Origin: Acidimicrobiia bacterium | Lineage (GTDB): Bacteria > Actinomycetota > Acidimicrobiia > Spongiisociales > ZC4RG35 | Assembly (NCBI GenBank): GCA_031389635.1 | Contig: JANMST010000262.1 | Span: forward strand, 1-33,750 | Length of the DNA stretch: 33,750 bases | Reading direction: 5' to 3' | Part shown: positions 16,495 to 30,486 of the stretch, one piece after another | Numbering within the stretch: position 1 is the first letter of the stretch | How the letters are laid out: every line of letters begins with the position of its first letter | Program-made: the position numbers and the translations under genes | The notes under the pieces: generated by a model | Databases searched by the model: none | Seen by the model: only the letters and a program-made list of their open reading frames with translations | What the model was told of the DNA's origin: nothing

Positions 16495-18684
16495 CTAGCG
16501 GCGCAGGAAGGCCGCCAGGTTCCGCAACTCGGCCGAGGGATCGATCCCGAGCTGCTCGGAGAACTTCCGAAGACATTCGTCGTAGGCAGTTAGGGCTGCC
16601 ACCCGATCACCACGGGCGAGATGGGACCGCATCACCACCATCCAGGCCCGCTCCGATAGCGGCTGTCGGATGAGGGCGGCCCGGGCTCGGGCCAGCGCAT
16701 GATCGGTCTGGTCGAGGTCGAGCAGCCACTCGGCCGAACGGATCGAAAGGTCGGAGGCGAGCTCACTCAATCGGGTACGTTCCCGAACCGCCCACTCCGT
16801 GTAGGGCTCCGAGGCCAGGTAGTCCTCCCCGGCGAGGTCGAGGGCCCGGACCGCCGACTGTTCGGCGGCTTCCAGGTCTCCCGCCGCGGCGCTCGTCGTC
16901 GCCTCGCCGGCCAGGTCGAGAAACTCCGCTACGTCGAGCCATTCGATCATCTCGGGCGCGATCCGGTAGAACGATCCTTGTCGTCGCAGGCATTTGGAAC
17001 CATCCGGGTGGATCTGTTCGAGACCCCGACGAGTCGCCGTCAACGCCACGTTCAGGTTCTTTGAACCACGTTCCGGATCACCCTCGGGCCAGAGGGCTTC
17101 CATCGCATGGTCGCGATGAACCGGGTCGCCCTGATGGTGCAGGAGCAGCGCCAACAGTGAAACCGCCTTCTTCGACCGCCAGGTCCAAACCGGCACCGGC
17201 TGTCCGCTGAGCCTTACTTCGAGATCGCCGAAGAGTCGAGCGCGAAGACGAAGCGGTTGGGCGGCGACTGTGAAAGTACCTTCTCCGCGACGCGTCAGCG
17301 CGACCAGGTTCTGCGCGGTCTCGGCCGTGTCGGGGTCCGCCAATCCCAGTTCGAGGAGTTCGGGATGAAGGGATGCATGGGCCGCGAGGACGTGCTCGAG
17401 GCGATATCGACCGACCATCGCCAGCGCCTGCCCGACCAGATCGAGAGCCTCGGCGTGATCCTCCGACGCGAGCTTGGCCGCTGCCAGCCACCACTGAGCG
17501 ATGACCAACTCGCCTTTTGAGTCAAAGGTCGTAAGAACAGGCAGAAGGCTCTCGATGTGGTCAGCAACTCGAGAAGGGGGGTCACCCGAAGCCAGTTGCG
17601 CCCGGGCCTGGCAGGAAAGCAGGCGGGCGTTTTCCAACGGGTCGGGCGAGGGGACCCGCAACCGGACTGCTTCGTCGGCGTCGCGGCGGGCACCCGCCGG
17701 GTCTCCGGCCGCTAGATGAAGGTCGGCCCGGGAGGCATAGGTGTGGGCGAGGCCGAACACGTTCTCGGCAGATGCCTTGAGGGCAATAGAGCTCTCGTAG
17801 AGGTCGAGCGCCTCGTCGAAGCGCCGCTGCTCGCGACGGGCCTCAGCGAGGTTGTTCAGCGCATACGACCGGGTGGTGTCGTGATCGGTGCGCTTGGCCA
17901 GTTCGATGGCCTCGGTGAGATGGCGGACGGCTCGATCAAACAGACCGAGATGACGCTCCGTGTGTCCGAGACTGTTGAGGGTGTTGGCCAGGGACAGATA
18001 GTTGGTGCCCCCCAGCTTGAGTTCATAGGCGCGCTCGAGGAAGGTTCGGGAAGGAACCGGCTCGCCTCGGTCCAGCAGCCTGGTGCCGAGATTGTGATAG
18101 GCCCGAGACGTCGAGAAGGTGAGCCCGTTCTGGCGGTAGAGATGCAAGCCCTCCAACCAGAAGGCGAACATCCCCGATTGGTCGTGGGACACCCATCGCG
18201 TCTCGTCTTCATCGAGGACTAGATCGGCGACAGGTGGGTCGCTCCAAGTCAGCGCCTCTTCGAAGGCTGTTCGAGCCTCGGCGAAGACCCCCTCCCGTTC
18301 CAGAATGACCCCTTCGGCCATGCCGACGAGGAACCGGACCCTCCGACCCGAAGGAGTGTCTTCCGCCCACCTAGTCCGGAATTGATGACCGGCCCGGCGC
18401 AGCGTCACGAGGGCGAGCGTGTGACGCCGACGGGTCGACCAGACCCACGCCAGGTAATAGAGGACCCAGGCGTTGTCCGGGGCCGACTGCTCGAGCCGCC
18501 GCAGGGTCGCCTCCATCCGATCGAGAGGAAGATCGAAGCCGAGCTCGACGAACATGATGGCACCCTGGTCGAGCGCCTCGAAGGCTCGATCCTCCTCACC
18601 GGCGTCGAGGGCAGCCTCTATCGCCTCCAATTGGCGGAGCACCCGCCGATCGGCAGTCCCGACCGGAATACGTCGGTCGTCCAT
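16495..18684 (-). CDS. TPR-repeat protein with a C-terminal OmpR-type winged helix plus BTAD domain (SARP module at the C-terminus)
   Basis: The C-terminal ~250 aa read LFGDLEVRLSGQPV...RSKKAVSLLALLL...AMEALWP, followed by the BTAD helices (SERAWMVVMRSHLARGDRVAALTAYDECLRKFSEQLGIDPSAEL). The N-terminal ~480 aa are TPR-like. I found no Walker motifs. Confidence 0.85.
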   Translation of the reverse strand: MDDRRIPVGTADRRVLRQLEAIEAALDAGEEDRAFEALDQGAIMFVELGFDLPLDRMEATLRRLEQSAPDNAWVLYYLAWVWSTRRRHTLALVTLRRAGHQFRTRWAEDTPSGRRVRFLVGMAEGVILEREGVFAEARTAFEEALTWSDPPVADLVLDEDETRWVSHDQSGMFAFWLEGLHLYRQNGLTFSTSRAYHNLGTRLLDRGEPVPSRTFLERAYELKLGGTNYLSLANTLNSLGHTERHLGLFDRAVRHLTEAIELAKRTDHDTTRSYALNNLAEARREQRRFDEALDLYESSIALKASAENVFGLAHTYASRADLHLAAGDPAGARRDADEAVRLRVPSPDPLENARLLSCQARAQLASGDPPSRVADHIESLLPVLTTFDSKGELVIAQWWLAAAKLASEDHAEALDLVGQALAMVGRYRLEHVLAAHASLHPELLELGLADPDTAETAQNLVALTRRGEGTFTVAAQPLRLRARLFGDLEVRLSGQPVPVWTWRSKKAVSLLALLLHHQGDPVHRDHAMEALWPEGDPERGSKNLNVALTATRRGLEQIHPDGSKCLRRQGSFYRIAPEMIEWLDVAEFLDLAGEATTSAAAGDLEAAEQSAVRALDLAGEDYLASEPYTEWAVRERTRLSELASDLSIRSAEWLLDLDQTDHALARARAALIRQPLSERAWMVVMRSHLARGDRVAALTAYDECLRKFSEQLGIDPSAELRNLAAFLRR

Positions 18685-18805: not shown

Positions 18806-19921
18806 CTATTCGTCTTTCACGTCGAATTCGACGATCAGGCCCGTCTGGTCCTGGTCCGGGAAATCGGTGTGGTAGCCCAGTTCGGCCTTCCACGTCGCCC
18901 GATCCCAATCCTTGTTGTCCTTGGTCCAATAGTTGAAGTGAAGGACCGGGTTGTCACTGTGAAAGATGATCCTGGCCACCGAGTCGCTATCGGGATGGTT
19001 GAACTTGCGCCCGCTCGACGAAATCAGGAAGTGCTTGCTGTCCAGGCGTTCCATCAACTCGTTGCTGAGATTGTTCTTGCTGCCATGGTGAGGCACCTTG
19101 AAGGCGTCGATCTTCAGCTTGGACTCGCCCCGTTCGGCCAGCAGGCGATCGAGCCCTTCGATCAGTGAGCCGCTGCGTGCGTCACCCGTGAAGAGGACGG
19201 ACCTATTCCCATACTCGGCCAGGAAGCTGATGCTGCTGGCGTTGGGAGCGCTCGAATCTTCGCTGAACTTGCGATTGGCCCATTTCTCCACATTGGGGGC
19301 GGCGCTTCCCAAGCGATCCTTCTGATAGCGCGGAGCGTCTTCGAGCAACTTGGCACCGGTGAATTCACCACCCGGTACGAGCCCGGCGTTCTCGATTGTC
19401 TTCTTCCACTCCGCCTTCAGGCGACCGAGATCCTTGGGGTTCGGGCCGACGATTGTCAGAGTCATCCCACCCGGGAGCTTGTAAACCGGCAGCCTCGTCG
19501 TCGGGTCGGACGAGATGGCGATCGCCTTGCCACCGGTCATCTGATGATGGGGATAGCCCCGCTGGGAGATCCTCTCCGTGAGCATCTCGCCTTGCTTGGC
19601 CCCGAGGGTGTCGGCCTCCTTGATCTGTTCCCAGGCGTTGAACCAGAACTCCCCGACCTCGAGCTCGAGGTCCTCGCTGAGGAGCTTGACCATCGCGTCG
19701 ATGTGGTCGTTGTCGATGTGGGTGATCGTGATCAACTCGAACCTGCGCGTACCGTCGATGCCCTCGATCTTCTCGAGCAACCGGTCGTGAGTTCCGAGCA
19801 CTCCACCGTCGATGAGGATGCGGCGCGGCTTCTTGGGATCTCCGTATTCGATCCACAGGGCATCGCCCTCCTCGGCCGGGAGCATCTCGATGCGAAGCTT
19901 CTTTACGATGCCACCCTCCAA
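18806..19921 (-). CDS. MBL-fold metallo-hydrolase, ComEC/Rec2-nuclease-like, soluble stand-alone
   Basis: Motifs are ITHIDNDHIDA (an HxDxDH variant of HxHxDH), SVLFTGDA and KVPHHGSKNN. The probable start is TTG at 19921, because the beta-1 strand LRIEML must be included. This start overlaps the upstream gene by 19 nt. Confidence 0.8.
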   Translation of the reverse strand: MEGGIVKKLRIEMLPAEEGDALWIEYGDPKKPRRILIDGGVLGTHDRLLEKIEGIDGTRRFELITITHIDNDHIDAMVKLLSEDLELEVGEFWFNAWEQIKEADTLGAKQGEMLTERISQRGYPHHQMTGGKAIAISSDPTTRLPVYKLPGGMTLTIVGPNPKDLGRLKAEWKKTIENAGLVPGGEFTGAKLLEDAPRYQKDRLGSAAPNVEKWANRKFSEDSSAPNASSISFLAEYGNRSVLFTGDARSGSLIEGLDRLLAERGESKLKIDAFKVPHHGSKNNLSNELMERLDSKHFLISSSGRKFNHPDSDSVARIIFHSDNPVLHFNYWTKDNKDWDRATWKAELGYHTDFPDQDQTGLIVEFDVKDE

Positions 19922-22698
19922 TCAGCGTCGCCGTAGGCGACGATCGACAGCACCATGGGATATCCGTCGTGCAGTGCCTTTCGTCGCAGGCGGCGAAGAA
20001 CGTCTCCGAGTCCGGTCTCCTCACCAGCCGCCTCGGACTTCAGGAAGCTGAGCAACTCGACGGCCACCGGCACGGCATGACGACCGAGAATGGTATTGGT
20101 GGTGCTGATGACGACCGCGGCCCCGGCCCGGCGGAACCTCGGGACGAGACCCTGAAAAGGGATCTTGGGGTTGGCGGTCTCGCACCCGAGGAGCACCGCA
20201 ACGACCGGCTTGGTTCGAGGCTCACGCATACGAACCCCCACCCTATTGACGGGTTCAAGCTCTCCGCCACCGATTTCCATCCCGATCGAAACACCGTCCT
20301 GATCGGTGTGCGGCACCAGGAAAATCATCGACGGATCGAGCGTTCCCATCTTCTCTTCGAAGTCATCCCAACTCATCGCCTGGGTGGCCTTGAATCCTCC
20401 TTCGGTCAGAGTCGTGGTCAGGTCTGATCGGTCCTCAGGGCTGACCTTGTCGCTCATGCTCCACAACACCGATTCGAGAGGCGTGATGCAATTGCGACCG
20501 GCGATGGGCTCTGATTGGAGGCGATACTCCCCCGCCAGCTCGACGAAGCTCGGATCGTGGGCGTGGCGTTCGATCACGTAGCGAACCCCCCAGAAGCCGG
20601 TTGGACAAATGGGGATCTCGCCAGGTCCGTGCCGCGTTTCGCAAGGCTGGCAGGTTCCCTCCAACACCACCTTCTTCCAGCTCTTGCAGAGCTTTCGCAC
20701 CGTCGGTGGGCGCAGGGCATAGAACAACTCCACCGGGAGATAAGACTCGGGTGTGGCCGAGATGATCTGGACCCGGCCCTCGGCAAAGAACCGGTCGGTG
20801 ATGCCGTGGTCGTTGACAAAGGTCTGGTGGAGCTCCTCACCGATCGTGGCCGCGTCGAAGAGGAGATCGAGGCTCGCCGGCGAGGTCAACGATTCGAAGG
20901 CATCGGGATCGTCGGCCACCGCCGTCAGAACGCCGATGAGCTGATCGATTCGAGGCCTCAGCCCGTCAACCGATCGCAGGGTCACACCGTCCTTGCAGAT
21001 GACGGTCGCCGCCTTGTCGCCGGAATCGTTGCGGTTGACAACGATGGCCACATCGAACGTCTTCAGGTCCGACAATCCTCCGAGGCCGGCTCGCACGATC
21101 GTCTCGACCTCGATCTCGGGCCTTCCCAGTCGGGACGGACGGCTGGCCACGACGTCGGATCGGAACAGAGCCGTTTGCAGCACCCGGCCCTGGAAGTAGA
21201 GCGCGATGCGCCCGAACACCGGGCCTGGATCGGTTATCAACAACGTGAGCTCGGCCCGATCGGAGTCGCCGGTGACCGGGAGGGTGACATGGGTTCTTTG
21301 GGTTTCTTCCTGGTTGTCGGCGCAGACGAAAGCAACCTCGATTTGATTGGGTCCCTCCGGCAGGTCGTCGACCGGAACCGCCGGCGCCTCTGGGCGGGTG
21401 ATTGATTCAGAGGAAAGGACACCGATCCACACCTCGAGGGAGTAGGCCTTGCCTGCCTCGAGGGCGACCTTGTGATCGACGCCGCCCTTCTTGATGGCGC
21501 CGTTCAACACTCGAACCTCGACTACTTCGTTCTCATGGTCACCGCGGGTTCCTCCATGTGAGCCGCCGTCCCCGTTGGCGGTGGCCATCTCCTCGGGAGG
21601 GGGCAGCTCCCCGGCGGCCGTGACCAGCATGGCCAGACCGGTCGCCTCGTGACTCTCGCCTTCGAAAGTGAATCGATCGTTGCGGATCGCATCCGACAGG
21701 TAGGACGCCAGAGCTCCCGCAAAGACCTTGCCGGATATCGTGAGTCCGGGGAGCAACTGGGATATCTCCTCGGATACATCGATCTCATAGTGACGGATAC
21801 GTGAGAGCCGGTCGGCGAATCGAGCAATGGTTTCCGATATGCGGCTGTCTGCGACCAGCCGGTATGAGAGGGCGCTGTATCCGGCACCGTTGTTCGTGAT
21901 CTCGGCGCGCTTCAAGGCGAAGTCGATCGGATCGTCGTGGGAGAGACCCTCGACCACGGCGTTGAGCCATCCGGGGTTCGAGTCGGGGGCTCCCGCCAGG
22001 TGGCATCCCCAGGCCCCGAACCGACTCGCCAGCCGGTCGGCGATTCGGGCGACCTCTGCTGGCTCGACGTCGACCGGCCCGAGAACGACGACCAAACCAG
22101 GCGAGACCTCGGGCACGATATCCATCGCGTCGGCCTCCGAGGCCGACCAGGGAACGAGCAATATCTCGCATCCTTCTCTCGCGTCAACCAGAGTCTGGAG
22201 TTGCGGCCACCACAACGAACCCTCGAGCTCACCACGCAGGCGCTCGGATCGTGCATCGTCGGCCAGGATCCCGATCCGCAACGGCCACCGCCATGAGAAT
22301 TCACCCGCTCCTGGTTCGGCAAGAACGTAGGCGCTAACACCGCGCTCGGGCTCGGTCATCACCATTAGCCAGTCGTGCAATTCGCTCTGAATTCCGAAAC
22401 CAGGATTCACCTGAAGCCTGACCGGGATCGCCCCGCCAGCTCTGGCAGCAACGGCAGGCGGCAACCACTCAAGGCTGCGGCGGGGCCGCTCCCAACGCAC
22501 TGCCTTTTCGGTGTCGCTCAGGACATCTCGAAGGGCGGCCATCAAGTCACTTTGATAGACGAGTTCCGGGTGGGCTTCGAGGACGCCAGCCGCCACGATG
22601 GCGTCCGAGAACTGGCGGTCGATGAGCTGGGAACCCCAATCGCCGAGTGACTTCCTCACCTGAAAGAACGGGCTCGGTGTCCGAGGGCTGGTTGCCAT
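19903..22698 (-). CDS. Large (931 aa) protein with a C-terminal CHAT (caspase-fold peptidase) domain
   Basis: A GGAG RBS lies 6 nt before the ATG at 22698. The C-terminal ~290 aa show IISATPESYLPVELFY, His in FLVPHTD and Cys in VAVLLGCET 42 residues later, then AGAAVVISTTNTI. I do not recognise the N-terminal ~640 aa. Confidence 0.8.
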   Translation of the reverse strand: MATSPRTPSPFFQVRKSLGDWGSQLIDRQFSDAIVAAGVLEAHPELVYQSDLMAALRDVLSDTEKAVRWERPRRSLEWLPPAVAARAGGAIPVRLQVNPGFGIQSELHDWLMVMTEPERGVSAYVLAEPGAGEFSWRWPLRIGILADDARSERLRGELEGSLWWPQLQTLVDAREGCEILLVPWSASEADAMDIVPEVSPGLVVVLGPVDVEPAEVARIADRLASRFGAWGCHLAGAPDSNPGWLNAVVEGLSHDDPIDFALKRAEITNNGAGYSALSYRLVADSRISETIARFADRLSRIRHYEIDVSEEISQLLPGLTISGKVFAGALASYLSDAIRNDRFTFEGESHEATGLAMLVTAAGELPPPEEMATANGDGGSHGGTRGDHENEVVEVRVLNGAIKKGGVDHKVALEAGKAYSLEVWIGVLSSESITRPEAPAVPVDDLPEGPNQIEVAFVCADNQEETQRTHVTLPVTGDSDRAELTLLITDPGPVFGRIALYFQGRVLQTALFRSDVVASRPSRLGRPEIEVETIVRAGLGGLSDLKTFDVAIVVNRNDSGDKAATVICKDGVTLRSVDGLRPRIDQLIGVLTAVADDPDAFESLTSPASLDLLFDAATIGEELHQTFVNDHGITDRFFAEGRVQIISATPESYLPVELFYALRPPTVRKLCKSWKKVVLEGTCQPCETRHGPGEIPICPTGFWGVRYVIERHAHDPSFVELAGEYRLQSEPIAGRNCITPLESVLWSMSDKVSPEDRSDLTTTLTEGGFKATQAMSWDDFEEKMGTLDPSMIFLVPHTDQDGVSIGMEIGGGELEPVNRVGVRMREPRTKPVVAVLLGCETANPKIPFQGLVPRFRRAGAAVVISTTNTILGRHAVPVAVELLSFLKSEAAGEETGLGDVLRRLRRKALHDGYPMVLSIVAYGDADWRVAS

Positions 22699-23121
22699 CC
22701 GAAGCTCCTATCGACCTAACACGTCATACAGGTGCAATCCCACCTGATGCCAGCCAATCGGAGATGGGTTCGTCCCATCTCTCCCATCGCCTGGAAGGGG
22801 GATGTAGAGGTCATTCGGTTGGTCCACATTTTGGTCGATGCCGGGCCCGGATGAGGGGATCGTTGGCGATCGGAAGGTGCGCACTTTCCGGACTCGTCCG
22901 GAGGCGGTTCCCAGAACGCGGCTTTGAACCTGGCTTTGCGCAGAGGCAACGCCAGGGAGCGATCGCAAGCGTCTGTTGCCTTTCATGCGGTTGCCCCCCT
23001 GTATTCCTGGTCCGAACCACGGTTGAGGCAAGACAGTCCCCCAGCCGCAAGACAGATGTACCTCAGGGTTGTCTTTGGCGTGTCTCGCTGTTGAGCTGCC
23101 GCCCGAGCTCCGGAAGCGCTC

Positions 23122-26100
23122 ATGTACGGCCGCCGTCGTTTCGCTAGATTCGTGTGCATGGCTCCTATCCGGATCCATCTACTCGGTGGGTTTCTGCTCG
23201 AGCACGACGGGCGCAACATGCCTCCCATCCCGTCGGCGGCGGGCCGATCTCTGTTCGCATATCTAGTCACCAACCGCGATCGGCGGCACACGAGGGACCT
23301 TGTTGCGGGCACTTTCTGGCCGGATCTCCCGGAGCAGGGAGCCCGGCGACGACTGAGCCAGGCCTGGTGGCAGATCCAGACCTCACTTCAAGATGTCAAG
23401 TCGGGTCACCCGTTCATCGAGGCCACCCTGTTCGACGTTGCGTTTGTTGCTACGGACTACTGGCTGGACATCGCCGAATTCGACCGCCAGATCAGCACCG
23501 CTGCCAAGCAGGCCGTAACCCGCGACCCGGCCGAGTCGGGATCACTGGAACAAGCCGTTGATCTCTATCGGGGCGAGTTCCTCGCCGGCTTCTACGACGA
23601 CTGGACCCACTTCGAGAGAGAGCGGCTTCGCTCGCAGTATTTGGTGAGCCTGGAAAGACTCATCGCGCTGCACAAGAGCCGGGCCGACTATGAGACAGCC
23701 CAGTACTTCGCCCGACGATTGAGCTTGCATGACCCGCTGCGAGAGTCGGCTCATAGGGAGGTGATGAGGCTCAGCTTCCTGCTCGGCCACAGCAATGAGG
23801 CACTTCGACAATACGAGCGGTGTGCGGACATCCTTTCCGAGGAACTGGGGAGACGCCCCTCAACAGAAACCGAAGAGCTCCGCATCCACATCGCTCAGAT
23901 GCGAGAAAAGGGTGAGAGCCCATTTGCTCCCACCATCAATGCTCCCCTTCTGAATGCGGCCCAGCGAATCCCCCTTGTGGGCCGAACCGAGGAGAGGAGC
24001 AGCATCCTCCGACGGATGGAGGACACGCTGCACGGCCGGGGGGGCGTGATCTTGGTCGAGGGGGAATCGGGCATTGGAAAGTCCAGACTCGTGGAGGAGT
24101 TGATCGACGATGCTCAGTGGCGCGGGCTGAGCCCCCTGCTGGCGACCTGTTCTGAAGCTGAGTTGCTTCACCCCTTGCAGGGTCTACGTCGGGCATTGCA
24201 AAGCGGATTGACCCGCCTTCGCTTCGATCAACTACAGGCAGTCTTGCATCGGAACACCCTCGCTGAGCTGGCCGAGTTGGTGCCTCACATCAGGGGCTGG
24301 CTCAACGACTCCGGGCTCGCTGCCGGCCCACCAGACGGCAACGCCCGAGAACAGCACCTACACACCATTCGCTCCGCGTTGTTCGCTCTTGCCGACCTCA
24401 ACCCCATCGTGCTCTTTATCGACGACGCCCAATGGCTTGACGAAGAGTCGGCGGCCGTTCTGGCAGAACTCGCTCCTGATATCGCCGATCACGGTCTGCT
24501 GATCCAATTGAGCTACAGAGACAGCGAGGTCAGGGATCGGCCGGTGATGTGGCAGCGACTCCTCGACATCGACGCCAGGACCAACACCCAACGGATCAAA
24601 ATCATTGCTCTCGACCTGGTCGAGTCAGGACGACTCGTGGAAGAGAGCTTGGGCGAAACCAAGGCAGACCCCGACCTGGTTGAGGGTCTGTACTTGGAAA
24701 CCGGGGGCAATCCTCTCTTCATCCTCGAGTCTCTGCGAGGGTGGCATGAGAACACGCTGGAAGGGCTCGGGCACGAAAGCCTGGATCGAAGACTCACGCT
24801 CCCGCCCACCAGCGGTGTCACGAGCGTCATCAGCCGCCGGCTCCAATCGCTTTCGGCCCAAGCCAAGGCGGTCCTCGAAGCCACCGCCGTGCTGGGGGGT
24901 CAGGCAAGATCGCGGCTGGTGGCATCCATGACCGGCTTGCCAATGGCTACCACGGTCCAATCGGTGACAGATCTGGTCCGGCGGGGCCTGCTACGTGAGA
25001 ACGTTGCGGGCTACGAGGTACCCCACGACCAGCTTCGGCGAGTGGTGTTGGGCGGGATCGACGGCGCCATGCTGAAGGTGATCCATGAGCGGGCCGCCAA
25101 TGCAATCGAGACCGAACAGCCCGACCTCGTCGAGGACCTCGCCTATCACTTTTCGGCCAGCCACATCGCCGACAAGGCTTACCGCTACTCGCTTCTATCC
25201 GCGAGGAGAGCCGTTGCCCTGGGTGCCTACGACATCGCGGTGCGACAGTTCGAGAACGCTGCCCGTTGGGCGGTGGGCGACGAGCGCTACCCGGTCCTCA
25301 CGGAATGGGAGGAAGCATTGGCGGTTCTCGGTCTACGAAGCGAGCAACACCGCATTCTCAACGAGTTGGCGGAGGTGGCAGTCGGTCCGGAAAAGAAAGC
25401 CGAGCTGGCCCGTCGACGGAGCCGGCTCTTCGCCGAGGAGGGCAATCACCGCCAGGCGGTGGAGGTTGCCAACCAGGCCCTCGTCGACAGCGAAGCGGGT
25501 GTGCCGCCGTTGCTGAAGGCGAGGTTGCTTCAGAACCTGGGATTGGTCATGGCCCGCTCGGGCCGGGCCCAGGAAGCCCTCCCCCATCTCGAAGCGGCCG
25601 TCGAAGTACTGGGCGACGATGTCGTTTCCAGAGCCGCCGCCCTGTGCGAGCTCGGCAACGTCCTCTGCGAGGTGCAGGAGTACCAGCGAGCCTCGGTTGC
25701 CTTGGCCGAGGCGAAGAGCCTCTACGAAGACATCGGCGACCTGCGAGGCACCGCCGAGGTCAACTCTCAACTGGCAATTGTGTCGATGGAGTTGGGTGAC
25801 GGGGACACCGCCATCAGCCTCTATACCGCAGCACTGCAGATCTCCCGCGAGCTCGACTACCGCCGCGGTCAGGCCGTCAACCTCGCCAACCTGGCCAACG
25901 TCCTCTACACCCAGGGAAAGGTCGGCCCCGCTCTGGGCCATTACCAGGAGGCAGCCTCGATTTTCTCCGAGATCGGGAATCGACTGGGGGCGGCCCTCGT
26001 ATCGACCAACGCAGCTTCGGTGAGATATCTGGTATTGGGAGATGCCTCGGTTGAGGCCGATATCCGACGCTCCCTCGCCTACTTCGAACAGGAAGACCAT

Positions 26101-26961
26101 CGATGGGGGCAGGCATTCTGCCAGGAGCACCTGGCCACTATCAGCCAGGGCAGCGGCGACCTCGCAACGGCCCGCGATCTCATAAACCGGGGCCTTGCTC
26201 TCCTGGAAGGGGGAGGACACCGCTGGGTCGAGGTCCATCTCCGCCGGCTCGGTGTGGAAGTCGAACTCGAGGCCAACGAGCCCGACCAGGCGGCGCTCCA
26301 GGTCGAAATCGCACGCCGGCTTTGCGACGAGCTCGGTCTGGCCGATGTTGCTCCCACCATCGAAAGCCTCGATGCCCTCGTGAAACTGAGCTACGGGCAG
26401 GTGGACGAGGCCCTCATGTCCGCTCGACGAGCTACCAACCTTCTGCAGAGAGGGACCGAGTTGCCGCATCTGGTCTGGTTCAGGCGCTACTTGGTCGCCA
26501 AAGCTGCGGGAGCGGATACCGATGCGGTCGACTCCTTGGCCAGGTCAGTGGCGCTCCTTACCCGGGTTCTCGATTCGTTTGGAACCGATGATCGCCGCCT
26601 GGCCATTACACGGGCCCACCATGTTCGAGCGATCATCGAGGCGCGGGATCGAAGCTTTCCCCAGATCCAGGAAATTCGCCTCCCGCTGGCCGGGATTCCC
26701 CTCGGGCGATCGTTAAAGGGCGGGGACTGGACCCAGGTCCGCTGGACCGTGTCCGATCCCTCCGATTTCGACGTGCCCGACCCGGTCGGGCGGCGTCGGC
26801 TCAGAATCAGGCGTTTCCTCGATGAGGCGGCCCGGCAGGGCGCCGACCCCCGTATCGAGGATGTCGCCACCGCACTGGGGGTGAGCGTGGCCACGGTCCG
26901 CAGGGACGTGGCCGAACTCAGACGAGCGGGTTCCGGACTGAGCACCCGCGGCAGCCGTTAA
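23122..26961 (+). CDS. SARP/AfsR-like regulator: OmpR-type wHTH + BTAD + AAA/NB-ARC-like ATPase + TPR + extra C-terminal HTH (1279 aa)
   Basis: Domain evidence is IRIHLLGGFLLEHDG, the BTAD segment (LRESAHREVMRLSFLLGHSNEALRQYERCADILSEELG), Walker A LVEGESGIGKSRL, Walker B VLFIDDAQWLDEES and TPR helices. The C-terminus IEDVATALGVSVATVRRDVAELRRAG is DeoR-like. The start is 23122 (GGAAG RBS) or 23158. Confidence 0.9.
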   Translation: MYGRRRFARFVCMAPIRIHLLGGFLLEHDGRNMPPIPSAAGRSLFAYLVTNRDRRHTRDLVAGTFWPDLPEQGARRRLSQAWWQIQTSLQDVKSGHPFIEATLFDVAFVATDYWLDIAEFDRQISTAAKQAVTRDPAESGSLEQAVDLYRGEFLAGFYDDWTHFERERLRSQYLVSLERLIALHKSRADYETAQYFARRLSLHDPLRESAHREVMRLSFLLGHSNEALRQYERCADILSEELGRRPSTETEELRIHIAQMREKGESPFAPTINAPLLNAAQRIPLVGRTEERSSILRRMEDTLHGRGGVILVEGESGIGKSRLVEELIDDAQWRGLSPLLATCSEAELLHPLQGLRRALQSGLTRLRFDQLQAVLHRNTLAELAELVPHIRGWLNDSGLAAGPPDGNAREQHLHTIRSALFALADLNPIVLFIDDAQWLDEESAAVLAELAPDIADHGLLIQLSYRDSEVRDRPVMWQRLLDIDARTNTQRIKIIALDLVESGRLVEESLGETKADPDLVEGLYLETGGNPLFILESLRGWHENTLEGLGHESLDRRLTLPPTSGVTSVISRRLQSLSAQAKAVLEATAVLGGQARSRLVASMTGLPMATTVQSVTDLVRRGLLRENVAGYEVPHDQLRRVVLGGIDGAMLKVIHERAANAIETEQPDLVEDLAYHFSASHIADKAYRYSLLSARRAVALGAYDIAVRQFENAARWAVGDERYPVLTEWEEALAVLGLRSEQHRILNELAEVAVGPEKKAELARRRSRLFAEEGNHRQAVEVANQALVDSEAGVPPLLKARLLQNLGLVMARSGRAQEALPHLEAAVEVLGDDVVSRAAALCELGNVLCEVQEYQRASVALAEAKSLYEDIGDLRGTAEVNSQLAIVSMELGDGDTAISLYTAALQISRELDYRRGQAVNLANLANVLYTQGKVGPALGHYQEAASIFSEIGNRLGAALVSTNAASVRYLVLGDASVEADIRRSLAYFEQEDHRWGQAFCQEHLATISQGSGDLATARDLINRGLALLEGGGHRWVEVHLRRLGVEVELEANEPDQAALQVEIARRLCDELGLADVAPTIESLDALVKLSYGQVDEALMSARRATNLLQRGTELPHLVWFRRYLVAKAAGADTDAVDSLARSVALLTRVLDSFGTDDRRLAITRAHHVRAIIEARDRSFPQIQEIRLPLAGIPLGRSLKGGDWTQVRWTVSDPSDFDVPDPVGRRRLRIRRFLDEAARQGADPRIEDVATALGVSVATVRRDVAELRRAGSGLSTRGSR

Positions 26962-27078
26962 CGCCACGACCGTTGGTTGCCGGCATGAGCGCTTAGTTCG
27001 GCCAACTCCACCCTTTCCCACGAGATAGGGGTGAGACAAGCGTCCTGCATGCTCACCCACAGAAGAAGGAGGTCGAAA

Positions 27079-27171
27079 ATGCGTCGAGTTCTGACGCTCG
27101 TAACCCTGGCAATAACCACCCTGCTCGTAACCGCGGCCCCGGCCCTGGCAAGCGTGGTCAACATTCATTGA
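27079..27171 (+). CDS. Unannotated 30-codon ORF: Sec-type signal peptide followed by the hexapeptide SVVNIH (candidate secreted pro-peptide)
   Basis: An AAGGAGG RBS (27066..27072) lies 6 nt before the ATG. The translation is MRRVLTLVTLAITTLLVTAAPALA/SVVNIH, with a positive n-region, a hydrophobic core and an AxA site. It lies 117 nt downstream of, and co-directional with, the TPR regulator. Confidence 0.45.
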   Translation: MRRVLTLVTLAITTLLVTAAPALASVVNIH

Positions 27172-27180
27172 ATCAACCAA

Positions 27181-27196
27181 GCCGCCAGCAGGCGGC
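27181..27196 (+). terminator. Short GC hairpin (GCCGCC-AGCA-GGCGGC) 10 nt after the small ORF
   Basis: The inverted repeat is seen directly. There is no U-tract, so the terminator call is weak. Confidence 0.25.
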
Positions 27197-27353
27197 GGCC
27201 GCCTCGGACAGGTTCAACATTTAGCTCGTGGTGGACCCAGCGAATAAGCAGGCCAATCGGTCCCAGTCGACGGGGGAATGTCACTGGAGACCAGGGGCTG
27301 CTCCGGATCGCTAGGGGAGTCGGAGAACCCGTCCGGGGCGGCTGTTCCTATTG

Positions 27354-27476
27354 ACGTGGTGCGTGGTGCGTAGGAACCCGTGGTGGGTGGTGCGTGGTGC
27401 GTTCCGTAAAAGCCTTCTCGTGATTGATATATCGCGTGTTTGAAACGCACCACACACCACGCACCACGCACCACGC
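27354..27476. repeat. Heptad repeat array (GTGGTGC) in inverted configuration, forming a long imperfect hairpin
   Basis: Direct heptads sit at 27356-62, 27363-69, 27380-86, 27387-93 and 27394-400. Inverted heptads (GCACCAC/ACACCAC) sit at 27447-53, 27454-60, 27461-67 and 27468-74. The AT-rich ~40-nt loop contains TTGATATAT. Confidence 0.85.
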
Positions 27477-27479
27477 TCT

Positions 27480-28559
27480 TTATGGTGCTTTCGGGTGGGG
27501 GATTAGGTACTCGGGGTCGTCCCACTGGATCCGGGCCTGGTCGACCGCCAACTTGTAGGTCGAATCGGCCGTCATGCGGTCCTTTACGCTCTGATGGATC
27601 CGGGGGTCGGGGGGCTCTTCGGGCCCGGACTTGAAGGCCTCGATCGTCCTGGTCCTGAAGGTGAGCAGCGCCCAGATCCAACCGGCCTTGTGGACCCGGC
27701 CCCGGGCATGGGTCGGATCGAGTTTGCAGGTCTTGGCGTAAGCCCGCGGCCGCAAGAGCAAACCCTCATCGAGGGCACGATCGGTCATCCATTTCAGCGA
27801 CACCACGGACAACTCGACCTGGTCCTTGAAGCCACCACCCACATCGCTGTGGACACCGGCAAACCACACCTCCCGTAGGTCCGGAGTTGTCTTCGCGTCG
27901 GCGAGGTACTCCCGATAGGGTCGCCGGCGCTCGTCGATGGAGACTGCGTGTCGAACCACGCGGGCATTGGGGAGTTGCCGGGTGTAAAGCCATTGCGGAT
28001 TCCACCGCAGTAGTCCGAGGGCCTTGACCGAGTCCCACAGCCCCAGGAAGTGGAGAGGAAGAGACAAGCTGCCCTCGCTCTCGACGGAGAAAGATTTGGC
28101 GAACCGATCGATCCTGTCCCAATCGTCCTTCTTCCAGGAGTTGCCTTTGGTGTAGGCGGACACGAGGTAATTGACGAGGTTCTCGGCCCCGCGTCTCATC
28201 AGTCCGCCCCGGTGAGCCATGCCAACCAGGGCGCGGGCCGTGTAGGCCCCTCGGCTAAAACCGAAAACATAGACACGGTCGCCGGGTTCATAGACCTGCA
28301 TCAGGTAGGTGTACGCCTCGGCCATATTGACCTTGATTCCGAAGCCGAATGTGAGTCCGAGCAGCTTGGTCAGGGCTCTTCCCCACGACGTCCAGGCGCC
28401 CTGGGCGCCGAAGGTACCAACCCCGGGGTCGTAGAAGGCGACCTGACGTTCCGGGTCTGAGAGGTCGAGCATCTCATAGAGGTTCACCACGTTCGAGGTG
28501 CCCCGGGCCTTGATCTGGTTGCCAGTGCCATCGAGGCACAAAACGATGTTCTTGGCCAT
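27480..28559 (-). CDS. DUF2235 alpha/beta hydrolase (T6SS Tle1-like phospholipase family)
   Basis: The N-terminus is MAKNIVLCLDGTGNQ. The nucleophile elbow is VFGFSRGAYTARAL. Other family segments are FLGLWDSV and FAGVHSDVGGG. Confidence 0.85.
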   Translation of the reverse strand: MAKNIVLCLDGTGNQIKARGTSNVVNLYEMLDLSDPERQVAFYDPGVGTFGAQGAWTSWGRALTKLLGLTFGFGIKVNMAEAYTYLMQVYEPGDRVYVFGFSRGAYTARALVGMAHRGGLMRRGAENLVNYLVSAYTKGNSWKKDDWDRIDRFAKSFSVESEGSLSLPLHFLGLWDSVKALGLLRWNPQWLYTRQLPNARVVRHAVSIDERRRPYREYLADAKTTPDLREVWFAGVHSDVGGGFKDQVELSVVSLKWMTDRALDEGLLLRPRAYAKTCKLDPTHARGRVHKAGWIWALLTFRTRTIEAFKSGPEEPPDPRIHQSVKDRMTADSTYKLAVDQARIQWDDPEYLIPHPKAP

Positions 28560-29096: not shown

Positions 29097-29345
29097 TCAA
29101 CCCTTGGCTGTCGTTCGATCTTTTGCTGGGCTCGTTTCCGGAGCCAGAGCAGCCTCAGCCGCTCGGAGTGCACCTGGTAGGTCGAGATCCTCCCCTGCTC
29201 TGATCTCCCTGTTGCGGTCGCTGACATCCATTCTCAGGACGAGCTTCTCGCGAAGTTCGTTGGCGAAGTTGCGATCCACCGGTGGTCGCTCGCCTCCCAG
29301 ATCGTTGTAGATCTTCTCGGCCGCGCCCCACAAACGGGCCGCCGG
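29097..29345 (-). pseudogene. Detached C-terminal tail of a large ATPase-TPR regulator, in a different frame from the cyclase ORF
   Basis: The frame reads ARLWGAAEKIYNDLGGERPPVDRNFANELREKLVLRMDVSDRNREIRAGEDLDLPGALRAAEAAL. This matches the conserved tail pattern (RLLGAAEALRE.G.PLPP..R.......G..L.L..A...AL) of SARP/cyclase-ATPase-TPR proteins. No ATPase or TPR body lies upstream. Confidence 0.55.
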
Positions 29346-30486
29346 GTTGACCTTGTCCTGGGCTGCGGGCGGCGTCGAGGGAGCGCAGAGGCGGAAAGCG
29401 TTCCATCAACCCGTCGGCAGCCACCTGGTAGATGTGATCGTCCGAGGGGAAGTCCTTGAGGCGGTGCCGGCCGAGATCGACGAGCGAGAAGTTCTGGCGG
29501 CCCCCGACGAGGCGGGCGGTGGTGGATGAAACCAGTATCTGACCGCCGTGACCGGCGGCCGCAATCCGGGCACCACGGTGGACGTCGATACCGAGGTAAC
29601 GGTCGCCAACCAGGGTTGCTTCGCCAGTGTGAAGGCCCATCCGCACTCTGACGATGGCGTGGTCGGGCCAGGCATGTGCGGCCAGTTCGCGCTGCGCCCC
29701 TACGGCCCCGGCCACGGCAGAGACCGCCGACGGAAAGACGGCGAAGAAGCCGCCACCGGCCGTGTCCACCTCGGCTCCGCCACCCCGGCTGATCGCACTG
29801 CGAACGATCGCGTGGTGTGCCTCGATGAGTGTGGAGTAGCGGTCCCCGAGCTGGCGCAGCAGAGCCGTCGACCCTTCGATGTCTGTGAAGAGATACGTGA
29901 CAGTGCCCTGCGGAAGCGAGGACTCCCCTTCCTCCCGGTCGAGGAAGCGCTCGCTGATCAGAACCGCCAGATCCTCCGACACCAACTGCCCCAGCTCTTC
30001 TGGAGTCGAGAAAGTTCGGTAACTGAGCTCGGCGTCCGACATGATCTCTCCGAGGAACCGGGTCAAGCCGGGTTGGCGGCCCGGGGAAGGCTCCTTCACG
30101 TAGATGAGGCGAGGCCTCTCCTTCCATTCCGCGAACTCTTCTTCGATGCCCGTGGGGCCGCCGCCCTCGGCGGCCCAGCCGATGCTCTCCCAGTAGATGC
30201 CGACGAAAACGTCGCTTTGGTCGAGATATGAGAGGTATACGTCGCGAGGTGAGTGATCACGAGCGCCTACCTCGAACATGATCGGGGTCAGCCGCAGCTG
30301 CTCGATCGCCTCCCGGGCGTACTGGCGTTCTGCGGCGAGTTCTTCAAGAGTCGAACTCACGAAGATTCTGAGCCGACGATCTGGGGTCGTAATCACTGTT
30401 TGGGCGACTTCAGCTGGCGGGCTGATCCGCCTGTCGTCGACGACCGAGTCCGAGCGCCTCCATGTCGGCATGGTCGAGATCGTCAC
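29155..30486 (-). CDS. DUF4062-like domain + class III cyclase homology domain protein, apparently truncated (the last ~70 codons look out of frame)
   Basis: The DUF4062-like segments are RIFVSSTLEELAAERQYAREAI and DVFVGIYWESIG. The cyclase segments are VTYLFTDIEGST, RMGLHTGEATL and FPPLRSL. After about 29370 the frame becomes Arg/Gly/Gln-rich junk. The GTG at 30396 would avoid the 77-nt overlap with the upstream gene. Confidence 0.65.
   Translation of the reverse strand: MTISTMPTWRRSDSVVDDRRISPPAEVAQTVITTPDRRLRIFVSSTLEELAAERQYAREAIEQLRLTPIMFEVGARDHSPRDVYLSYLDQSDVFVGIYWESIGWAAEGGGPTGIEEEFAEWKERPRLIYVKEPSPGRQPGLTRFLGEIMSDAELSYRTFSTPEELGQLVSEDLAVLISERFLDREEGESSLPQGTVTYLFTDIEGSTALLRQLGDRYSTLIEAHHAIVRSAISRGGGAEVDTAGGGFFAVFPSAVSAVAGAVGAQRELAAHAWPDHAIVRVRMGLHTGEATLVGDRYLGIDVHRGARIAAAGHGGQILVSSTTARLVGGRQNFSLVDLGRHRLKDFPSDDHIYQVAADGLMERFPPLRSLDAARSPGQGQPGGPFVGRGREDLQRSGRRATTGGSQLRQRTSREARPENGCQRPQQGDQSRGGSRPTRCTPSG

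Follow-up and report, generated by a model that had tools for sequence, protein, structure and literature searches.

A probable peptide signalling pair in Acidimicrobiia, formed by an AfsR-like large SARP regulator and a short propeptide

A 33,750-nucleotide stretch of DNA from an Acidimicrobiia bacterium (contig JANMST010000262.1, assembly GCA_031389635.1; the whole of this stretch is called the window here) carries a gene for a regulator of 1279 amino acids (aa), followed on the same strand by a gene for a 30-aa propeptide whose predicted mature form is the hexapeptide SVVNIH. We consider it probable that this pair is a peptide signalling (quorum-sensing-like) system, RRNPP-like in its working and built on an AfsR-like STAND/SARP regulator, which we call the receptor. 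The proposal builds on the reality of the propeptide gene, the constraint on its hexapeptide, the layout of the cleavage site, the pairing with one receptor subfamily and the presence of a SARP box ahead of the peptide gene.

Results

A conserved propeptide gene follows the receptor

The receptor gene ends with a TAA at 26961 and the propeptide ATG follows after a gap of 117 nucleotides (nt; 26962-27078), both genes lying on the + strand. An initial annotation, made from the letters alone, had pointed to this gap between co-directional genes, to a 30-aa open reading frame (ORF) and to an AAGGAGG 6 nt before the ATG at 27079, all of which were verified in the sequence. The features of the propeptide gene are as follows.

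27079..27171, + strand: propeptide gene, 30 aa, with a TGA stop at 27169-27171 (ORF call, and kept in 16/16 orthologs)
27079..27150, + strand: signal-peptide part, aa 1-24, with an MRR N-terminus, a hydrophobic core and an A-x-A motif ending at A24 (profile alignment)
27151..27168, + strand: predicted mature hexapeptide SVVNIH, with predicted cleavage after A24
27066..27072, + strand: Shine-Dalgarno (SD) sequence AAGGAGG, 6 nt ahead of the ATG at 27079 (sequence)

The translation of 27079-27171 ends in A-L-A followed by SVVNIH. An alternative in-frame GTG at 27031 would give a 46-aa version of the same ORF; the ATG at 27079 is preferred because the SD sequence precedes it and the orthologs favour the MRR start. 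Taken by itself, a 30-aa ORF is not beyond chance in this region, since 25 ORFs of at least 20 aa overlap 26500-27700 at a window GC content of 63%. Sixteen receptor copies from relatives of the window's genome (38-93% identity) were used as the ortholog set and their flanking DNA was inspected; no claim made here draws on the unpublished genome G038. A co-directional mini-ORF was found 30-130 nt 3' of the receptor in every one of the 16, preceded by a GGAGG-type SD in most of them. Because the ORF, the signal-peptide layout and the position of the cleavage site are all kept in 16/16 orthologs, the mini-ORF lies far beyond chance and, judged by this comparison, is a real and conserved gene.

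The ortholog products are uniform in their anatomy, with an MRR or MRK start, a hydrophobic core of 15-18 residues, an A-x-A motif and a short C-terminal peptide. They are 30-38 aa long (30 aa here), within the 10-100-aa range of RRNPP_detector. Alignment of the 16 propeptides showed M1 and A24 (position -1) to be invariant and R2 and A22 (position -3) to be kept in at least 90%, and the cleavage site lies six residues before the stop throughout, or seven in two copies. The basic N-terminus, the 15-18-aa core and the A-x-A motif with its invariant A at -1 are Sec-like features, and their retention in the orthologs supports the earlier view of a propeptide with a Sec-type signal. Given the invariant A at -1, SVVNIH would be the exact piece released by signal peptidase.

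The same basic N-terminus and hydrophobic core would also suit a single span with the N-terminus inside (N-in), that is, an uncleaved single-pass membrane microprotein that acts in the membrane (for example by binding a sensor or transporter there), keeps its hexapeptide outside and does not act on the adjacent receptor. Small membrane regulators of sensors do exist, MgrB among them. We nevertheless regard this explanation as unlikely: an uncleaved anchor would have no need of an A-x-A motif with an invariant A at -1, placed 6-7 residues from the stop everywhere, and the peptide varies together with a cytoplasmic receptor to which it is genetically coupled.

Just 3' of the propeptide stop, at 27181-27203, lies a GC-rich hairpin (GCCGCC-AGCA-GGCGGC; -16.1 kcal/mol, z -1.08), which is a possible terminator. 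A conserved terminator after the propeptide was considered and dropped, because this hairpin is weak by its z value and hairpins are not kept in the orthologs.

The hexapeptide is lineage-specific and constrained

The predicted mature peptide is SVVNIH in the window's own genome, and SVVNIR, AVVNIR, SISDMS (five genomes), SVSQMS, SESFMS or SIGNMT in relatives, among which NGNWGS, EITNMHG, ILRPGHP and DVYFLR are also predicted. SYYLIK goes with a receptor of a more divergent subfamily, and a VVNMG peptide was found in another Actinobacteria metagenome-assembled genome (MAG), reached through a database homolog. The initial annotation had expected orthologous loci to keep the position and signal peptide of the mini-ORF while the C-terminal peptide varied by lineage, and this is what was found in all 16 orthologs.

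Within the SISDMS clade (five genomes, with receptors 66-93% identical), the signal region is amino-acid-variable at 12/24 codons and the hexapeptide at 0/6. Three of the six hexapeptide codons do vary, all of them synonymously, and pairwise synonymous versus non-synonymous differences amount to 71 vs 75 in the signal region and 17 vs 0 in the hexapeptide. At greater distance, SVVNIR and AVVNIR have the VVNI core in common although their receptors are only 37-38% identical and their signal parts ~30% identical. As the hexapeptide codons vary synonymously only and the VVNI core is kept between distant receptors, the constraint is on the encoded mature peptide and not on the DNA. Peptide similarity follows receptor similarity with a Spearman correlation of 0.32, a descriptive value since kin are not independent. 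A variable signal joined to a constrained, lineage-specific mature peptide is the pattern to be expected when a signalling peptide and its receptor are matched to each other.

The codon data also bear on a cis-acting role, in which the ORF would control a downstream gene, either as a leader (or upstream) ORF or through translation arrest by its peptide, while its product had no function. A short intergenic ORF with a strong SD lends itself to such a role, which is nonetheless extremely unlikely here. Synonymous-only variation in the C-terminal codons, together with the fixed position of the stop, points to constraint at the protein level; no conserved co-directional gene lies downstream; and, unlike in SecM, 30 aa would be too short for the signal sequence to exit the ribosome tunnel.

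The propeptide is coupled to one receptor subfamily

Within the host order, 123 of the 301 genomes searched (~40%) are matched by a profile built from the 16 propeptides, the strongest matches being short open frames. The receptor C-terminus stood directly upstream in all nine of the profile-match loci that were examined (five newly examined genomes and four known pairs). Two to four matches per genome were observed in several genomes, among G034, G035, G056, G086, G076 and G108, and G034 carries two receptor-propeptide pairs with the unrelated hexapeptides AVVNIR and NGNWGS. Among 80 more remote SARP-NB-ARC-TPR homologs, drawn from many phyla, none is followed by a mini-ORF; none was found downstream of the two further SARP-TPR paralogs in the window either, and the Chloroflexota receptor homolog L100 equally has no mini-ORF. 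By these sequence comparisons, the mini-ORF trait is confined to one receptor subfamily.

This coupling has to be set against the idea that the hexapeptide is indeed a signal but is read by some other protein, such as a histidine kinase in the membrane or a receptor whose gene lies elsewhere, and not by the adjacent SARP. Binding to the adjacent SARP is itself a prediction, and two-component kinases also sense peptides in Gram-positives. Another receptor is very unlikely, however, given how strictly mini-ORF and receptor go together (in every ortholog and every profile locus examined, and in none of the distant homologs) and given that the peptide sequence follows the receptor lineage.

The receptor is an AfsR-like large SARP

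By its architecture, the receptor is an AfsR-like large SARP, a STAND ATPase with a TPR sensor and a C-terminal helix-turn-helix (HTH) domain. Its parts are as follows.

23122..26961, + strand: receptor gene, 1279-aa AfsR-like large SARP regulator (Pfam, NCBIfam, AlphaFold2)
23464..23886, + strand: bacterial transcriptional activation domain (BTAD), residues 115-255 (Pfam PF03704, E=2.5e-24)
23971..24480, + strand: AAA/NB-ARC-type ATPase, residues 284-453 (Pfam AAA_16, E=3.5e-21)
25324..26661, + strand: TPR superhelix, residues ~735-1180, the proposed peptide sensor (Pfam TPR, AlphaFold2, Foldseek)
26662..26961, + strand: C-terminal beta-hairpin and three-helix domain, HTH-like (winged-HTH-like), residues ~1181-1279 (DUF1670/HTH_DeoR/HTH_11, AlphaFold2)

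Ortholog lengths range from 1250 to 1600 aa. The NCBIfam AfsR SARP model spans residues 15-320 with a score below the model cutoff, and the N-terminus resembles the OmpR-type DNA-binding region of SARPs on manual inspection; Pfam Trans_reg_C gave no match in this N-terminus (23122-23450) even at E 10. The SARP DNA-binding region is, to judge from its sequence, divergent. Further along, Pfam TPR matches fall at residues 800-948, including TPR_12 at 877-948, and DUF1670/HTH_DeoR-like matches at residues 1202-1278. The C-terminus, with its TRGS motif and HTH-like domain, is conserved across the orthologs.

An AlphaFold2 model of residues 735-1279, made with 24 homologs, reached a predicted local distance difference test (pLDDT) score of 93.4 and a predicted template modelling (pTM) score of 0.87, and predicts a TPR superhelix of ~20 helices followed by a beta-hairpin and a three-helix domain. 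The best Foldseek matches of the TPR region were the TPR superhelices of LGN (a peptide-binding TPR), OGT and TSK; no RRNPP receptor was found in the top 50, which bears neither way on relatedness.

A SARP-type repeat precedes the peptide gene

Three elements were recognised in the gap between the two genes.

27021..27038, + strand: SARP-type heptamer direct repeat CGAGATA ... TGAGACA with an 11-nt period, a putative receptor operator overlapping the propeptide -35
27048..27057, + strand: conserved CAT(A/G)(C/G)TC element, ~22 nt past the repeat, possibly the -10 region (aligned intergenic regions)
27030..27057, + strand: inverted repeat GGTGAG (27030-27035) / CTCACC (27052-27057) (sequence)

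SARPs activate promoters through heptameric direct repeats with an 11-bp period near the -35 (PMC10972967). The site TGAGAYA-N5-GAGAY, with at most one mismatch, occurs 56-73 nt before the propeptide start in 12 of the 16 orthologs; ~0.01 such sites would be expected from mononucleotide shuffles of the intergenic regions, and the intergenic sequence outside the conserved elements has diverged among the orthologs. The window holds a single copy of this SARP box, at 27021-27038. Since a SARP-type repeat lies upstream of the gene and SARPs act through such repeats near the -35, the receptor probably acts as an activator of its own peptide gene, an arrangement that would produce positive feedback.

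The GGTGAG/CTCACC inverted repeat that had been noticed earlier in the gap is present as described. It pairs the second heptamer with the conserved CAT-like element and is lineage-specific, occurring in the window's own genome and in its relative G001 only. Elsewhere in the window's genome there are two more exact TGAGAYA-N5-GAGAY copies (G000:C175:4244-4260 and G000:C520:11372-11388), which may be other receptor targets or may be due to chance.

Neighbouring genes and the divergent region

The initial annotation had also connected the signalling pair with a divergent operon described as CHAT-MBL, and this connection could not be upheld. No CHAT domain was detected with Pfam, NCBIfam or PHROGs, the divergent region at 22699-23121 has no SARP box, and the divergent neighbours of the receptor are common only to the closest relative, G001. 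The divergent operon was rejected as a conserved receptor target on these grounds. The conserved target that can be demonstrated would, from the motif data, be the promoter of the peptide gene itself.

The protein with a metallo-beta-lactamase (MBL) fold at 18806-19921 (- strand) matches PADLOC LmuA (E 1.2e-66) and, below the cutoff, NCBIfam Avs1a (AVAST type 1 MBL; E 3e-57), and is a possible anti-phage effector. Beside it, a 931-aa protein at 19903-22698 (- strand), divergent from the receptor, has no domain matches. A second SARP-TPR regulator at 16495-18684 (- strand) has the reversed order, with the TPR N-terminal and BTAD/Trans_reg_C C-terminal, and no propeptide-like ORF lies downstream of it. 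On the other side of the pair, a Tle1-like phospholipase at 27480-28559 (- strand; Pfam T6SS_Tle1-like_cat, E 5e-73) is convergent to the propeptide gene and carries a domain of the type VI secretion system (T6SS) effector type, here in an actinobacterium. At 29155-30486 (- strand) lies a class III adenylate/guanylate cyclase that bears DUF4062 at its N-terminus. Short repeats of the GTGGTGCG type occupy 27340-27476, with a 7-nt tandem array of ACGCACC at 27445-27476, and metagenome contigs break around 27385-27438.

Host, habitat and expression

The window's genome (G000) comprises 3.7 Mb in 549 contigs with a GC content of ~63%. The peptide locus of G026, a relative from the host order, is identical to that of the NCBI MAG GCA_046759765.1, whose receptor annotation names an Acidimicrobiia bacterium as the source. 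This identity within the same order places the host in the class Acidimicrobiia, phylum Actinomycetota, and agrees with the earlier description of a GC-rich actinobacterium. Acidimicrobiia are common in soil, sediment and wastewater but poorly represented in culture, and the window's DNA is present in freshwater sediment metagenomes. One contig of a soil metatranscriptome, derived from a relative, includes the propeptide ORF and the sequence 3' of it but not the 3' end of the receptor. With strand and level not readable, it hints only weakly at separate transcription of the peptide gene.

Discussion

A proposed course from propeptide to receptor

From these data we infer a sequence of secretion, cleavage, re-import, TPR binding, autoregulation and control of a regulon. 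The 30-aa propeptide would enter the membrane N-in, with the RR inside and the hydrophobic segment spanning; because the precursor is too short to reach the signal recognition particle (SRP) on the ribosome, insertion would be post-translational, for example YidC-type or spontaneous. Signal peptidase I would then cut after A-x-A and free the hexapeptide outside the cell without further processing. The hexapeptide would accumulate with cell density and be re-imported, probably through an Opp/Dpp-type peptide transporter, and such re-import is possible because ~8-10 Opp/Dpp-type substrate-binding proteins are encoded in the window's genome. Once inside, it would bind to the receptor on the concave side of the C-terminal TPR superhelix and shift the ATPase/oligomer state of the protein (STAND logic), and hence the activation of transcription by the SARP. 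The targets would include the peptide gene through its heptamer repeat, closing the feedback loop. Receptor lineages with different peptides would represent several pherotypes, with two to four pairs in some genomes.

The export step is what would distinguish such a signal from a private co-regulator. In the latter case, the 30-aa product, whole or in part, would bind the receptor in the cytoplasm without export and would not be diffusible. The two genes are adjacent and probably co-expressed, which suits this explanation, and some STAND proteins may be controlled by small partner proteins. We find it quite unlikely all the same, because a conserved Sec-type signal and cleavage site ahead of a conserved C-terminus would then be superfluous, and because the layout matches that of RRNPP propeptides, which are exported and then re-imported (PMC10075063).

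Several points weigh against an exported hexapeptide sensed by the adjacent receptor. Cutting by signal peptidase I with just six residues beyond the site would be unusual. The structural likeness of the modelled TPR region is generic, its top Foldseek matches being eukaryotic TPR proteins, and no precedent was found in the literature for peptide binding by a STAND/SARP TPR domain. One G034 pair (pair a) has no SARP box, whereas the other pair of this genome has one, and the idea of autoregulation is read from this motif and from nothing else. Genes flanking the pair are not conserved among relatives, and secretion, cleavage, peptide binding and regulation are predictions from sequence.

What the pair would mean

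Peptide quorum sensing with intracellular TPR receptors has been regarded as essentially limited to Bacillota and their mobile elements (PMC10075063). Our literature search turned up no earlier account of a SARP/STAND receptor paired with a signal-peptide propeptide, nor of an RRNPP-like system in Actinomycetota. Signalling in the latter phylum proceeds mostly via small molecules, for example gamma-butyrolactones, and one preprint goes no further than the speculation that peptides might be ligands of mycobacterial TPR-LuxR proteins. What would be new here is that the RRNPP-like logic is carried by another receptor family and lies in another phylum.

In the broadest terms, the data may describe an order of Acidimicrobiia with its own widespread peptide quorum-sensing code, made up of AfsR-like STAND/SARP intracellular receptors, hexapeptides cut by signal peptidase, many pherotypes and a self-activated peptide gene. 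To this broader claim, which would make the pair a third RRNPP-like route, outside Bacillota, and its peptide the first known ligand of a large-SARP TPR, we give even chances. If true, peptide signalling should be expected more widely, including in Acidimicrobiia, and a first ligand would be known for the TPR sensor at the C-terminus of AfsR-type large SARPs. AfsR-type large SARPs control antibiotic production in Streptomyces. Direct release of a 6-mer and a SARP box before the peptide gene would offer handles for genome mining and for activation of such regulators.

Comparison with known systems

The initial annotation had likened the layout to RRNPP and arbitrium systems. The conserved adjacent propeptide with its Sec-type signal agrees with this view; the receptor, a 1279-aa protein with ATPase and SARP parts, is not of the RRNPP type. 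RRNPP_detector defines receptors of 250-500 aa without extra ATPase domains, with a propeptide of 10-100 aa as direct neighbour (PMC10075063). Its signature further asks for a propeptide of the Sec/SPI type and for C-terminal receptor TPRs that take up the mature peptide, and its filter discards candidates whose domains do not occur in the reference receptors, which combine TPRs with an N-terminal HTH or a Rap 3-helix bundle. Receptor and propeptide are direct neighbours here, on one strand across 117 nt and equally in all 16 orthologs, but the receptor is far longer than the ~250-500 aa of this definition, its SARP, BTAD, AAA/NB-ARC, TPR and C-terminal HTH parts go beyond an architecture free of extra domains, and an Acidimicrobiia host falls outside the RRNPP range of Bacillota and mobile elements.

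With the RRNPP systems (Rap/Phr, NprR/NprX, PlcR/PapR, PrgX/PrgQ and Rgg/SHP, from Bacillota, plasmids and phages), the pair has in common an intracellular TPR regulator adjacent to and co-directional with a Sec-signal propeptide, a short C-terminal oligopeptide as the predicted active part (5-8 aa in RRNPP), and paralogous pairs with different peptides in one genome. RRNPP peptide genes are also often autoregulated by their receptor, as with PlcR and papR. The differences are a 1279-aa STAND/SARP receptor in place of a 250-500-aa TPR-HTH or Rap protein, a host from Actinomycetota (Acidimicrobiia) rather than Bacillota, a SARP-type heptamer repeat in the promoter, and a cleavage motif that suggests direct release by signal peptidase, whereas Phr, PapR and AimP are matured by extracellular proteases.

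Arbitrium (AimR/AimP/AimX of Bacillus SPbeta-group phages) likewise places the C-terminal hexapeptide of a small secreted precursor beside a TPR receptor, and its receptor-peptide pairs have likewise diversified into distinct peptide codes. AimR, however, has ~380 aa and an N-terminal HTH, and AimP has ~43 aa and is matured by extracellular proteases. The arbitrium pair is phage-encoded and governs lysis-lysogeny through AimX; no phage genes and no AimX-like gene were found near the pair described here, whose neighbours are variable.

For the mode of action, MalT provides the closer parallel. In MalT and other STAND activators, a ligand on the C-terminal superhelical sensor releases autoinhibition and leads to oligomerisation and activation, and the action proposed for the peptide on the receptor would be the same STAND ATPase switch. 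MalT senses maltotriose and has a LuxR-type HTH, whereas the receptor here has a SARP DNA-binding region.

The receptor itself belongs with the large SARPs. AfsR, PolY and RslR3 of Streptomyces have a SARP region with BTAD, an NB-ARC ATPase and a C-terminal TPR (PMC10972967, PMC11301090). The receptor has the same architecture, with N-terminal SARP and BTAD, a central NB-ARC/AAA and a C-terminal TPR, and the heptameric repeat with an 11-nt period upstream of the propeptide gene resembles SARP sites. We know of no peptide partner or TPR ligand for AfsR-type proteins. The subfamily described here differs in adding a C-terminal HTH-like domain (DUF1670/HTH_DeoR) and in living in Acidimicrobiia.
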